Source of the DNA: Escherichia phage vB_EcoM_G17 | Sequence record: MK327931.1 | Reading direction: 5' to 3' (one strand) | Length of the DNA: 64,000 nucleotides | Shown here: one piece after another, positions 44,165 to 50,757 of the stretch | How positions within the stretch are numbered: position 1 is the stretch's first letter | Layout of the letters: each line of letters opens with the position of its first letter | Translations under genes and position numbers: made by a program | The notes under the pieces: generated by a model | The model's database searches: none | The model's input: the letters and a program-made list of their open reading frames with translations, nothing else | Told to the model about the DNA's origin: nothing

Positions 44165-44183
44165 GATAAAACTCCTTAATTTA

Positions 44184-44246
44184 GGAGGGAGAACCATTTC
44201 CCCCTCTCTATGTAAAACATTATACTTGATTCTAAGTACTATGCAA
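44184..44246 (-). promoter_or_regulatory. sigma70-like promoter + leader hairpin cassette (PeSL-like)
   Basis: -35 TTGCAT 44241-44246, 16-bp spacer, -10 TATAAT 44219-44224, GC hairpin about 44184-44208. Confidence 0.6.
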
Positions 44247-44253
44247 GTACTTT

Positions 44254-44586
44254 TTACATTTTAATACCTGGATTCAGGTAGCGGTGAGATCCATATTCTG
44301 GATCGGTTTCGGTCCAGTACTGTAAATCGATAGTACCTTTCGCGTTAATCTTGTCTACCAGCTTATTCATCTTAGTGTATACTACGTCAGCATCGATGCG
44401 TTTAAAGCCAGTAGCTTTAGTGAAGTAGTAGTGATTTGCTTCACTATCATTAAGGATATACCGAGCACCGTTTGCAGTCTGTGCGATAATGATTGAGTAT
44501 TCTACTTCCCGATCCAGACCGTCGATGAATACAGATGAAACATTGGTACGGATGAAAGCTTTAACGATAGCGATTGAAGTACTCAT
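44254..44586 (-). CDS. hypothetical protein
   Basis: ORF track; AGGAGA SD. Confidence 0.65.
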   Translation of the reverse strand: MSTSIAIVKAFIRTNVSSVFIDGLDREVEYSIIIAQTANGARYILNDSEANHYYFTKATGFKRIDADVVYTKMNKLVDKINAKGTIDLQYWTETDPEYGSHRYLNPGIKM

Positions 44587-44606
44587 TTTGAATCTCCTAA
44601 CTTTGT

Positions 44607-44668
44607 GGGCCGTCGCACCATTGCCGCCCTACGAGATACATTATTGCAGTACTGATATACTTTGTCAA
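44607..44668 (-). promoter_or_regulatory. sigma70-like promoter + leader hairpin cassette
   Basis: -35 TTGACA 44663-44668, weak -10 (AATAAT/CAATAA), GC-rich hairpin about 44607-44629. Confidence 0.5.
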
Positions 44669-44737
44669 TACTTTTTTTATTAATAGTTTTCACCCCACCA
44701 GCAGATAGTTACTCACCGTTATTAACTATATATTTTA

Positions 44738-44830
44738 GATACACTCCTGCACCCAGTGGGCTAGTTTTTGTCTATGCGTATATAATAGCAAAGGGACTGA
44801 CCGGAGTCAATCCCTTTTTTTATTCTTTTT
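44738..44830. repeat. repeated intergenic element copy A with bidirectional terminator
   Basis: Motif GATACACTCCTGCACCCAGTGGGCTAG 44738-44764, then hairpin GGGACTGACCGGAGTCAATCCC 44793-44814 and T-run; recurs near 47485-47580, 50758-50840, 54042-54130. Confidence 0.6.
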
Positions 44831-44832
44831 TG

Positions 44833-45033
44833 TTAGATGATTCTCCAATCTTCTACGATCATGGTAAGATAACGGACCATCGATTCAAGTGATTCGAATT
44901 CCCGATAGTCTGCCGCTCCACCAGCGGTACAAGTACAGCCGATTAAACCATTTTGTAATTCCTTAATCTGTACATCGATAAGGTTGGCTTTAGCTTCTTT
45001 CAGTACTTCAACCAGGGCGATAGCGATAGACAT
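44833..45033 (-). CDS. hypothetical protein
   Basis: ORF track; GGAG SD; own promoter cassette. Confidence 0.55.
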   Translation of the reverse strand: MSIAIALVEVLKEAKANLIDVQIKELQNGLIGCTCTAGGAADYREFESLESMVRYLTMIVEDWRII

Positions 45034-45056
45034 AATGTTTTACTCCAAACTATTGA

Positions 45057-45116
45057 CGGGAGAACTATTCCCCCGCTCTATGTAAAACATTATACATTAC
45101 TGGTTAGTACTGTCAA
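45057..45116 (-). promoter_or_regulatory. sigma70-like promoter + leader hairpin cassette
   Basis: -35 TTGACA 45111-45116, 16-bp spacer, -10 TATAAT 45089-45094, hairpin CGGGGGAATAGTTCTCCCG 45057-45075. Confidence 0.6.
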
Positions 45117-45122
45117 ATAGTT

Positions 45123-45380
45123 TTATGAAATATCTTCGATGTAGTCGGCCCATTTCATTTTTTCAGTACTGTCAATGGCTACCGGATTATTTGGATCAAA
45201 CCATTCACCATTCCCGCAATACATACCCACGGCAACGGTTTTATATCCATCCTGTGCAGTACTCCACGACATAGCACGATAGATATGGCCTTTAACTGGT
45301 TGCAATACTGGTAATGTTTTATGGTCTTCTACGTAGGCCATAGCTTGAGGATTTACCCGATATTGTGTGAACTGTTCCAT
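45123..45380 (-). CDS. hypothetical protein
   Basis: ORF track. Confidence 0.65.
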   Translation of the reverse strand: MEQFTQYRVNPQAMAYVEDHKTLPVLQPVKGHIYRAMSWSTAQDGYKTVAVGMYCGNGEWFDPNNPVAIDSTEKMKWADYIEDIS

Positions 45381-45408
45381 TATGTTTCCCCTTGTAGTTA
45401 GTAAAGTT

Positions 45409-45437
45409 ATTACATCAGTACTATCAAGCTATGTCAA
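45409..45437 (-). promoter_or_regulatory. sigma70-like promoter (no leader hairpin)
   Basis: -35 TTGACA 45432-45437, 17-bp spacer, -10 TGTAAT 45409-45414. Confidence 0.5.
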
Positions 45438-45456
45438 TAGTACTGAAATAAAACTT

Positions 45457-45681
45457 TTAGATTAGATTATTGATGCCGTTGATGGTAGACTCGCTTTCTT
45501 CTTTCTCCCATTGGCGGTAGTACTTCCATGCTTCATGATATGTGGCGATTAGTTCATCTTTTTGATCCTGAGTACATGCCAGTACTGAATCACGGTGAGC
45601 GGTTTTATAGATAGAATCGAATGATTTCTTCTCTTCTGCCAGGTTAGCTACTTCCCGCATCAGTTCATCAAAGTTAGCCAT
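45457..45681 (-). CDS. hypothetical protein
   Basis: ORF track; AAGGAG SD. Confidence 0.65.
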   Translation of the reverse strand: MANFDELMREVANLAEEKKSFDSIYKTAHRDSVLACTQDQKDELIATYHEAWKYYRQWEKEESESTINGINNLI

Positions 45682-45699
45682 TTTATTACTCCTTTTAGT

Positions 45700-49085: not shown

Positions 49086-49490
49086 TTAGATAACCTGGCG
49101 GCGTTTACTGAATACTGTTACACGATTACCCTTACGGTCGTGTCGGATCTCTTTCTGGTTGCGAATCAGTTCACTTGGACGCTTAAGGTTTGCCAGGTGA
49201 TCCGCGTGAGTCCATGCGGTGTGGTTTACCTGTACTTTGATATCAGAATCAGCGATAAACTCATCTTGTGCGTCAAGTATTGCCGCCAGCATATCCGCTC
49301 GTTTTAGTTCTGCTGCTGTCAGTACTGGCTCAGGTGAATTCACAATATCAGAGATTTCTTTGAACTGTACGGCCCAGCGTTGACCTTTCGGTGCATCTTT
49401 GCCCATGTCTTTAAATGCTGCTCCTTCCTCGCGTGCAACAATACGGGCAGCTTCACGGGTAGCGTAGAATTTAGTAATCATGGTATACAT
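49086..49490 (-). CDS. hypothetical protein (paralog of 61268..61534)
   Basis: ORF track; shared motifs KFYATREAAR and DRKGNRVTV with 61268..61534; alternative start 9 nt downstream possible. Confidence 0.6.
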   Translation of the reverse strand: MYTMITKFYATREAARIVAREEGAAFKDMGKDAPKGQRWAVQFKEISDIVNSPEPVLTAAELKRADMLAAILDAQDEFIADSDIKVQVNHTAWTHADHLANLKRPSELIRNQKEIRHDRKGNRVTVFSKRRQVI

Positions 49491-49525
49491 CCTATTAGTT
49501 GAGATAGTACTACAAGTTAGAGTCT

Positions 49526-49554
49526 ATTATAAAGTACTATCTGGGCAATGTCAA
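49526..49554 (-). promoter_or_regulatory. sigma70-like promoter (no hairpin)
   Basis: -35 TTGACA 49549-49554, 17-bp spacer, -10 TATAAT 49526-49531. Confidence 0.55.
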
Positions 49555-49576
49555 ATAGTACTTTAAATGGATTCTA

Positions 49577-49900
49577 TTACATGTCTTTCTTACGTTTTAC
49601 ATCGTAGTATCGAACTGTAATTTCTTTGTTGATCTCTTCCTCGATGCGGTGAATAACTTTTTCTTTCGGGTTGAAACCTATAACGGTTTCTTTAATGATC
49701 TCCAAGCCCGTGTATTCGCCTTGTGTACCGTAACCGTATGTAAAGGTTTCGTGTCCCAGGTCTTCCCAGCGGTCGCCAATTAACGCTGACACGTAGCAAG
49801 AGTGGTAAGTATTGCCGTTCCGATCAGTCCAGCGATTAACTTTAATGTCAAAGGAGGTTACAATTTTCAGTTCTACTTTCTGGGTAAGGATCATAGCCAT
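49577..49900 (-). CDS. hypothetical protein (paralog of 55695..56018)
   Basis: ORF track; shared motif RWTDxxGNTYHSC and C-terminal KRKKD. Confidence 0.65.
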   Translation of the reverse strand: MAMILTQKVELKIVTSFDIKVNRWTDRNGNTYHSCYVSALIGDRWEDLGHETFTYGYGTQGEYTGLEIIKETVIGFNPKEKVIHRIEEEINKEITVRYYDVKRKKDM

Positions 49901-49923
49901 TTTTATTTCTCTCTCTTTGTTAG

Positions 49924-49984
49924 GAGGGGAACCATTCCCCTCGCTTGATGTAAACTATTATACAGTACTAAGATACTTTGTCAA
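49924..49984 (-). promoter_or_regulatory. sigma70-like promoter + leader hairpin cassette
   Basis: -35 TTGACA 49979-49984, 16-bp spacer, -10 TATAAT 49957-49962, hairpin GAGGGGAA-CCA-TTCCCCTC 49924-49942. Confidence 0.65.
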
Positions 49985-49987
49985 TAC

Positions 49988-50170
49988 TTATTTTTTGGAA
50001 AGTTTACGCATTAATTCTACGCTTTCTTGTGAACGTTTTGCTACCTGGCAAGCTGTATGGGCAGTAAACATTTTTGTATAGTCTGACGCTTTGCCACCAA
50101 ACCGAGCGGCACGTTCACGGGCACTTGGAACTAATACTATTTCTTTCTTGCAGATAGTGCACTTAGCCAT
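49988..50170 (-). CDS. hypothetical Cys-containing small protein
   Basis: ORF track 49988..50215 trimmed to ATG (MAKCTICKK); extension ran through hairpin. Confidence 0.5.
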   Translation of the reverse strand: MAKCTICKKEIVLVPSARERAARFGGKASDYTKMFTAHTACQVAKRSQESVELMRKLSKK

Positions 50171-50193
50171 TTTTATTTCTCTCTCTTTGTTAG

Positions 50194-50255
50194 GAGGGGA
50201 ACCGTTTCCCCTCACTTGATGTAAACTATTATACAGTACTAAGATACTTTATCAA
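50194..50255 (-). promoter_or_regulatory. sigma70-like promoter + leader hairpin cassette
   Basis: -35 TTGATA 50250-50255, 16-bp spacer, -10 TATAAT 50228-50233, hairpin 50194-50213; about 88-bp near-identical direct repeat of 49901-49987. Confidence 0.55.
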
Positions 50256-50258
50256 TAC

Positions 50259-50534
50259 TTAAGTATTGTAAATGTCGTGAATAGTGATAAAGTTTTTACG
50301 ACCGTAAACCTGCAAATCAATATCAATGTAGTGCTTATCTAGTACATCCTCGACGCTTAACGCGGTGTCGTGGATATCTTCGTAGAATTGAGGATCTACA
50401 ATCTTGCTTAAGTCATCCGGCGTTAACTTATCGTTAAGCCATTGAACCGCCTGGATATCTGCTTCACGTTTCCAGTCTTCCAGGTTAGTAGTCAGTACTT
50501 GTTCGATTTCGTTAGCTGTCAGTAGAATCCGCAT
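50259..50534 (-). CDS. hypothetical protein
   Basis: ORF track. Confidence 0.65.
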   Translation of the reverse strand: MRILLTANEIEQVLTTNLEDWKREADIQAVQWLNDKLTPDDLSKIVDPQFYEDIHDTALSVEDVLDKHYIDIDLQVYGRKNFITIHDIYNT

Positions 50535-50567
50535 TTTTATGTTTCCTTATCAGTGGTTGATGTAAGT

Positions 50568-50595
50568 ATTATACTCGTTTACTTTCTATTGTCAA
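50568..50595 (-). promoter_or_regulatory. sigma70-like promoter (degenerate hairpin)
   Basis: -35 TTGACA 50590-50595, 16-bp spacer, -10 TATAAT 50568-50573. Confidence 0.55.
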
Positions 50596-50680
50596 ACTAT
50601 TTTATCAGGGGAGTTTTTCGTATGTCTTACTCCTGGACTACTTAACAGGGTTACTTATTTCGTTCCCCGTCCTGATGTAA
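50596..50680 (-). other. conserved structured leader element, copy 1
   Basis: About 85 nt without ORF between two tandem promoters; ends can pair (ATCAGGacGGGGA with TCCCCTGAT); homologous to 60584-60672 and 57534-57656. Confidence 0.4.
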
Positions 50681-50683
50681 AAC

Positions 50684-50711
50684 ATTATACTTGATTCTAA
50701 GTACAATGCAA
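50684..50711 (-). promoter_or_regulatory. sigma70-like promoter
   Basis: -35 TTGCAT 50706-50711, 16-bp spacer, -10 TATAAT 50684-50689. Confidence 0.55.
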
Positions 50712-50757
50712 GTACTTTTTTAAAAATAGTTTTCAGTACTAGCCACCAGCAAACAAT

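Follow-up and report, generated by a model that had tools for sequence, protein, structure and literature searches.

Promoter-hairpin cassettes as probable sites of gene exchange in the terminal repeat of an Asteriusvirus jumbo phage

We examined a 64,000-nt stretch of phage DNA (the window; sequence record MK327931.1) in which positions 44000-51000 match Escherichia phage Sharanji (OR545507.1) at 100% identity. Sharanji is a jumbo phage of 350 kb and belongs to the genus Asteriusvirus and the 121Q/PBECO4 group (record taxonomy, Caudoviricetes; Asteriusvirus). From about 43 to 64 kb, every gene is small, minus-strand, and annotated as hypothetical. Some 35 promoter cassettes are spread across 43.3-64 kb, all in direct orientation on the minus strand. 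Several of these cassettes are near-identical, as an original prediction made from the sequence had stated, and related phages differ by insertions and deletions (indels) of genes bounded by cassettes. The cassettes most probably recombine with one another by general homology, shuffling early genes within the Asteriusvirus terminal repeat. They would constitute early-gene regulatory units of the promoter-early stem-loop (PeSL) type, placed before small genes of unknown function; taken as a whole, we consider this explanation very likely.

Indels between cassettes in related phages

Window positions 41-64 kb were compared with 13 relatives (SP27, UE-S1, ECO103 4-12-1, EC22.5-2, TH47, phAPEC6, A4, 121Q, fEgEco12, CRJP21, UB, SD-6_S16, and EJP2) using chained blastn alignments. 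Within the terminal repeat, 54 distinct junctions were found. At 14/54, one stretch of 45-125 nt aligns to both flanking repeats (in-register junctions); 19/54 are replacements, and 21/54 are indels without repeat overlap. Breakpoints fall at cassettes in 48 of 108 cases, against 17.5 ± 3.8 expected and a maximum of 34 in 10,000 randomizations, in a region composed of 14% cassette and 21% other noncoding DNA. The prediction had proposed that the repeats between 44165 and 50720 are recombination substrates and that relatives should differ by indels bounded by them. Inside this interval, with EJP2 left out as the most divergent relative, seven of the eight distinct indels are in-register cassette-to-cassette junctions (Table 1), and the breakpoint excess speaks against the contrary outcome, namely breakpoints unrelated to cassettes.

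Junction alignments reveal that the shorter genomes carry one chimeric cassette, which matches the upstream Sharanji copy in its upstream flank and the downstream copy in its downstream part. The pair 49901-49987 and 50171-50258, singled out as likely substrates, conforms to this pattern: the intervening gene is missing in UE-S1, TH47, phAPEC6, and 121Q, and a single chimeric cassette is left. For the other proposed substrates, at 44184, 47379, and 50676, the evidence is indirect. An indel exactly between 44181-44256 and 47374-47449 was found in 0/13 relatives, whereas a TH47 deletion joins 46026-46101 to 47374-47449, and homology to the unrelated phage muut ends at 50690.

Gene content in the array is fluid, with 21 of 50 genes missing from at least one close relative (33 of 50 when EJP2 is included). 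For the genes at 48498-48716 and 49988-50170, the relatives display all four combinations of presence and absence, a distribution that requires repeated events or recombination between lineages. A replacement at 59497/59834 shows the same boundaries, as homology ends right after the hairpin of one cassette and restarts at the hairpin of the next. Some genes of the repeat come in two divergent alleles among relatives that are otherwise 95-99% identical (53269-53481, 99% versus 72-73%; 48197-48439, 96% versus 68-86%), which suggests possible allelic replacement from an outside lineage.

Near-identical copies between unrelated genes

The copies at 44181-44256 and 47374-47449 have 96% identity over 76 nt, including an exact run of 54 nt (44186-44239 = 47379-47432). 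A third copy, at 50675-50720, reproduces 47403-47448 exactly over 46 nt and comprises the promoter half only; the hairpin half, at 50646-50674, differs in sequence from the 47374-47449 copy. The second pair, 49894-49990 and 50164-50261, is 92% identical over 95 nt, and the identity reaches through the Shine-Dalgarno (SD) site and the first two codons (ATGGCT). That this pair differs "mainly" in its -35 element (TTGACA versus TTGATA) was a slight understatement, since two more substitutions, three in all, and a 1-nt indel in the hairpin loop also separate the copies. An exact run of 59 nt links a further pair unnamed in the prediction (46563-46640 and 47057-47134).

Such identity exceeds both chance and family resemblance. 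The longest exact direct repeat in the shuffled 20.7 kb was 13-16 nt (20 shuffles), compared with 40-59 nt for near-identical cassette copies. Among the 595 pairs formed by 35 cassettes, identity has a median of 58% and a 90th percentile of 70%, and the two named pairs rank first and second (92% and 88%). Rather than being confined to the promoter consensus, which was the other outcome weighed against the prediction, identity extends to the spacer, leader, hairpin loop, SD site, and first codons.

The repeats lie between unrelated small genes, again as proposed. All 10 proteins tested from the 44165-50720 interval belong to PHROG families of unknown function, and genes flanking near-identical cassettes fall into different families. 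All-versus-all blastp of 50 proteins from the region recovered two paralogue pairs only, neither involving genes that flank near-identical cassettes. Gene duplication was accordingly rejected as the source of the repeats.

Cassette anatomy

Read 5' to 3' on the minus strand, a cassette comprises an A-rich UP-like stretch, a -35 element, a spacer, a -10 element, a start region, usually a hairpin, an SD site, and ATG. The A-rich stretch reads AAAAAGTA(C/T) or ATAAAA and is conserved in the alignment; the -35 element after it is TTGACA in one class (class B in Table 1) and TTGCAT or TTGCAA (TTGCAW) in another (class A). The spacer of 16-17 nt mostly contains AGTACTG and leads to a TATAAT -10 element, followed by a conserved GTTTTACAT or AGTTTACATCAA and a start region that ends in ACAT. 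Perfect 12/12 promoter matches number nine within 12 kb (43.5-55.5 kb), every one on the minus strand, and several more sites match at 10-11/12. Across the array, 35 upstream regions bear promoters and align as one family.

A leader hairpin is present in 20 of 35 cassettes, with a G/C-rich stem of 7-10 bp lying a few bases into the transcript (e.g., GGGGAGAA/UUCUCCCC). Leaders were folded one by one, because RNAalifold on a MAFFT alignment of the 20 proved unusable, the unequal stems being out of register. Folding energies range from -10.6 to -16.7 kcal/mol with z-scores of -2.2 to -6.2, and while stem sequences vary between copies, pairing is always kept. No U-tract follows these hairpins, and a terminator scan misses them on the minus strand; lacking the U-tract, they are unlike intrinsic terminators. 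An Rfam search of 42-64 kb returned nothing relevant, with one sub-threshold Trp-leader match. We infer that the cassettes may act as early promoters whose hairpin would stabilize or insulate the transcript.

The cassette layout also bears on gene annotation. The annotated starts of 43763-44197 and 49988-50215 overrun or undershoot the cassette, and the same probably applies to 58646-58897 and 61953-62372. Cassette layout and the annotations of relatives place the probable true ATGs of the first two genes at 44164 and 50170.

Proposed mechanism and alternatives

In the mechanism that we favor, host RNA polymerase would fire the cassette promoters right after infection, and the leader hairpin would stabilize or insulate each short transcript. 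General homologous recombination would pair cassette with cassette. Pairing within one genome would delete the intervening genes together with one cassette, and pairing between co-infecting genomes or excised circles would insert or replace cassette-plus-gene modules in register.

Several observations weigh against this account or narrow its reach. The evidence is comparative, and recombination is read from its end products. Breakpoint positions taken from blast are approximate, and the relatives, being phylogenetically linked, do not count as independent samples. About 40% of the junctions (21/54) have no repeat overlap, as exemplified by a clean 349-bp difference at 51573/51923 in seven phages, and the mechanism behind the 19/54 replacements is ambiguous. 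Identity is higher between the two cassettes at the edges of a deletion than in other cassette pairs (median of 77% versus 58%; Mann-Whitney p ~1e-4), a comparison that is partly circular, given that overlap detection requires similarity. The terminator role shown for one PeSL of phage RB49 does not appear evident for the leader hairpins described here. Selection alone would also leave surviving breakpoints in intergenic DNA, which here is largely cassette; it is therefore the in-register overlaps and chimeric cassettes, and these only, that argue for homology-driven exchange. Cassette recombination thus appears to be one route among several.

The same consideration underlies the foremost competing explanation, in which the cassettes resemble one another through a shared need for strong early promoters and indels end there since only intergenic breakpoints survive selection. 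Family-wide conservation of non-hexamer positions suggests functional constraint of this kind, and both the composition of the array, whose intergenic DNA is largely cassette, and the junctions without overlap are compatible with it. However, the pairs that flank variable genes reach 87-92% identity with exact runs of 40-59 nt, well beyond the family-wide 58%. Their junctions are in register and scarless, leaving one intact chimeric cassette, and breakpoints lie inside cassettes, at the hairpin or start region, instead of anywhere intergenic. Function without recombination is, on balance, rather unlikely to account for these data.

Exchange could alternatively be site-specific, with a phage DNA-binding protein or nuclease recognizing the G/C hairpin or AGTACT and catalyzing an attC-like reaction. 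The idea was raised for PeSLs by Arbiol et al. (PMC2839356), several breakpoints do lie at or beside the hairpin, and AGTACT, a part of the cassette, is 15-fold over-represented in the window. Yet the crossover position varies, being found upstream of the -35 element, within the leader, or after the hairpin, and the hairpin-less cassettes at 48440-48507 and 48717-48783 also yield in-register indels. So do paralogous coding repeats at 41669/41999, just outside the array, a case that favors general homologous recombination acting on any direct repeat. The Sharanji paper, moreover, reports no integrase-like gene (PMC11895373). A dedicated recombinase is, for these reasons, very unlikely. Least credible of all, to the point of being nearly negligible, is that short-read assemblies, from which most of the relatives derive, collapsed near-identical repeats of 80-100 bp into false deletions; the 77-nt overlap at the end of the Sharanji record is indeed of the kind an assembler k-mer leaves, but as many as seven genomes of independent laboratories share the same deletion, the lost stretches (180-1,275 bp) consist of unique sequence in which reads would be anchored, and fEgEco12 was checked by restriction mapping.

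The direct terminal repeat and its borders

The original prediction had placed the array in a hyperplastic region of a T4-like phage. This setting does not hold, as the phage is an Asteriusvirus jumbo phage and the variable region would be its direct terminal repeat (DTR) instead of a T4-type hyperplastic region. The termini of fEgEco12 were confirmed by restriction mapping, and its DTR spans 1-20,993 (PMC13070987). Position 1 of fEgEco12 aligns to window position 64000 and position 20,993 to about 43,331, which delimits 20,670 bp; the array region is assigned to the DTR on the basis of these mapped ends. The published Sharanji DTR measures 20,668 bp (PMC11895373). Coverage of at least 80% of 44-51 kb in a single piece was found in only 10 records, compared with 21/33 records for a control segment outside the repeat.

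Other features of the window concern its borders. The window spans the ends of the Sharanji GenBank record, position 1 of which corresponds to window position 27556, and its own end almost coincides with the physical genome end as defined in fEgEco12. The record closes with a repeat of its first 77 nt (window 27556-27632), apparently a k-mer overlap left by an assembler. Just inside the inner DTR boundary, 40000-43265 holds overlapping paralogous small genes about 215 bp long that lack promoters of their own, and the number of these units varies among relatives via in-register indels. Megablast matches to 44000-51000 also included six Campylobacter phage records, which may be short or spurious.

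Terminator modules and other repeated elements

A terminator module of about 95 nt occurs four times, with 12-bp hairpins at 44790-44817, 47542-47569, 50811-50838, and 54099-54126, and partitions the array into units of about 3 kb. On the minus strand the hairpin reads AAAGGGAUUGAC-UCCG-GUCAGUCCCUUU, preceded by an A-run and followed by a T-rich tail; in the fourth copy (54099-54126), pairing is preserved by compensatory changes. Every module leads, through about 100 nt of conserved sequence, to a class-A cassette.

A double-promoter leader of about 190 nt occurs twice (50535-50740 and 60524-60729; ~86% identical) and is also found in phages muut and W70. A long-range stem (AUCAGG..GGGGA/UCCCC..CCUGAU) is predicted for it, with z-scores of only -2.2 and -1.8 and no Rfam match.

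AGTACT is the commonest hexamer of the 64-kb window, with 251 sites against 17 ± 4 expected, and lies in coding and noncoding DNA alike; it is frequently extended to CAGTACTG (63 times). Sites are dense in 1-27,930, 35,647-38,091, and 43,464-64,000 and absent from 27,930-35,647 and 38,091-43,464. The related palindromes GAGTACTC, CGTACG, and GGTACC have zero occurrences in the window. In the cassettes, AGTACT belongs to the promoter spacer and the -35 flank. A literature search on the AGTACT excess found nothing relevant.

Table 1. Cassettes, genes, and other elements of the array, followed by the indel junctions within 44165-50720 (the two breakpoints separated by a slash)
Feature	Position	Strand	Remarks
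Inferred DTR of Sharanji	43331-64000	minus	~50 small early genes and ~35 promoter cassettes
Class-A cassette, first named copy	44165-44256	minus	AAAAAGTAC-TTGCAT-N16-TATAAT-GTTTTACAT-hairpin-SD; before gene 43763-44164; hairpin ΔG -15.9 kcal/mol
Variant-hairpin cassette	44587-44690	minus	before gene 44254-44586; 121Q has an extra gene, with 69 nt of duplicated homology
Terminator module	44736-44830	minus	12-bp hairpin 44790-44817; other copies at 47488-47582, 50757-50851, 54045-54139
Cassette	45034-45126	minus	before gene 44833-45033; cassette and gene both missing in TH47
Class-A cassette	45682-45766	minus	before gene 45457-45681; lower edge of 121Q deletion of gene 45749-46012, 48-nt overlap
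Class-A cassette	46013-46101	minus	before gene 45749-46012; upper edge of 121Q deletion and lower edge of TH47 1.35-kb four-gene deletion
Class-B cassette	46560-46650	minus	TTGACA-N16-TATAAT-AGTTTACATCAA-GGGGAGAA..TTCTCCCC; before gene 46287-46559; 59-nt exact run with 47076-47134
Variable 135-codon gene	46647-47054	minus	494-bp unit with one cassette; missing in SP27, UE-S1, phAPEC6, 121Q, CRJP21, UB, SD-6_S16
Class-B cassette	47055-47144	minus	partner of 46560-46650; before gene 46647-47054
Class-A cassette, second named copy	47360-47449	minus	before gene 47138-47359; upper edge of TH47 1.35-kb deletion, 73-nt overlap
Hairpin-less promoter cassette	48440-48507	minus	before gene 48197-48439; partner of 48717-48783
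Hairpin-less promoter cassette	48717-48783	minus	before gene 48498-48716; gene and one cassette (276-bp unit) missing in SP27, SD-6_S16, TH47
Class-B cassette, named in original prediction	49901-49994	minus	before gene 49577-49900
Variable 60-codon gene	49988-50170	minus	annotated GTG start 50215 enters cassette; 271-bp unit with one cassette, missing in UE-S1, TH47, phAPEC6, 121Q
Class-B cassette, named in original prediction	50171-50262	minus	before gene 49988-50170; muut homology stops inside, at 50182
Double-promoter leader	50535-50721	minus	class-A promoter 50676-50721 (third named copy), ~75-nt structured leader, second promoter 50568-50595, gene 50259-50534; muut homology stops at 50690; extra gene in 121Q and phAPEC6 at 50553-50607, 55-nt overlap
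Junction, 121Q	44683/44615		extra gene; overlap 69 nt
Junction, 121Q	45765/46053		without gene 45749-46012; overlap 48 nt
Junction, TH47	46103/47379		without four genes (1.35 kb); overlap 73 nt
Junction, seven phages	46646/47043		without gene 46647-47054; overlap 99 nt
Junction, three phages	48497/48713		without gene 48498-48716; overlap 62-85 nt
Junction, four phages	49996/50164		without gene 49988-50170; overlap 103-108 nt
Junction, 121Q and phAPEC6	50607/50553		extra gene; overlap 55 nt
Junction, TH47	44830/45121		eighth indel; no repeat overlap

Cassettes beyond Asteriusvirus

The same cassette family is found in other RaK2-like jumbo phages, often within annotated terminal repeats, and also in unrelated coliphages of smaller genome size. 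One is phage muut (Justusliebigvirus, 146 kb), which matches window 50182-50690 at 93% identity. This homology begins and ends inside cassettes: one end lies within 50171-50262, just past the ACATC start region, and the other at 50690, in the third named copy. Phage W70 (Vequintavirinae, 137 kb) carries the same cassettes; of the 12 early genes next to them, seven have homologues in the Sharanji terminal repeat, in shuffled order and at 43-90% amino-acid identity. The nucleotide homology blocks of W70 begin at 59497, 61874, and 56634, all in cassettes, and the first of these positions is a breakpoint also found within Asteriusvirus.

The cassette family might serve as a shared "plug" among unrelated virulent coliphages (Asteriusvirus/RaK2-like jumbo phages, Vequintavirinae, and Stephanstirmvirinae), with early genes crossing families by homologous exchange and the 20-kb jumbo repeat acting as the main landing pad. 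We put this forward tentatively, as a scenario with slightly less than an even chance of being right. The occurrence of one cassette family in several coliphage families suggests that early genes could swap between them wherever the same cassette occurs, a modestly novel hint.

Comparison with known systems

PeSLs are composites of a sigma-70 promoter, a stem-loop, and an SD sequence that flank genes of unknown function in T4-like phages; recombination between them removes, adds, or exchanges genes and gives rise to mini-circles (PMC2839356; PMC4122927). They have been reported for RB49/phi1, PST/T4, and nt-1/KVP40 (Arbiol et al. 2010, PMC2839356; Comeau et al. 2014, PMC4122927). Every sequence-level feature of the PeSL definition is present in the Sharanji cassettes. 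Both are intergenic elements of about 100 bp with an AT-rich upstream part, a near-perfect sigma-70 promoter (TTGACA-N17-TATAAT in RB49), a polyG/polyC stem-loop, an SD site, and ATG; both form clusters where the genome varies most, between small genes of unknown function; and in both, indels and replacements between close relatives cross over inside the cassette. Placement of the hairpin downstream of the -10 element, as in Sharanji, corresponds to one of five PeSL subclasses (PMC2839356). The systems differ in that Sharanji is an Asteriusvirus jumbo phage, whereas PeSLs have been described only in T4-like myoviruses, and in that its array sits in a direct terminal repeat. Further differences are the location of the Sharanji hairpin in the transcribed leader with no U-tract and no evident terminator role, the conserved AGTACTG in the spacer, and the separate strong terminator modules every ~3 kb.

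Other mobile arrangements offer partial parallels. Lambdoid morons (PMC2839356) are likewise single accessory genes with their own promoter between other genes, but they lack a conserved bounding repeat and their insertion is thought to be illegitimate, while the Sharanji flanks themselves supply homology. Integrons resemble the array as a series of single promoterless or self-expressed genes that are excisable as circles and re-inserted at a repeated site (PMC2839356). Unlike an integron, the Sharanji array has neither an integrase nor an attC-type site; because its crossover position varies, general homologous recombination is favored over an integron-type enzyme. The pre-early region of phage T5 is also similar, combining host-takeover genes, strong host-type promoters, and a large direct terminal repeat. 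A family of near-identical promoter-hairpin cassettes that bound gene indels is, to our knowledge, not described for T5.

For Asteriusvirus and RaK2-like phages, we found no published account of such cassettes or of indels bounded by them. Promoters are not a topic of the papers on Sharanji and fEgEco12 (PMC11895373; PMC13070987), and the paper on phage CBB goes no further than predicting RpoD-like promoters, with UP-like elements, for the early region. On the practical side, the cassettes expose several wrong annotated start codons, supply about 35 candidate strong early promoters, and provide concrete testable junctions in the 494-, 276-, and 271-bp units. Cassette exchange would account for why the early host-takeover end differs most among phages that are otherwise 95-98% identical, which is relevant to comparing such phages and choosing them for therapy. 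Set beside the known systems, the Sharanji array places the known PeSL mechanism in a new host lineage and a new genomic setting instead of adding a mechanism, and it would extend cassette-mediated modular shuffling past T4-like phages, its only documented group, to the terminal repeats of 350-kb jumbo coliphages.

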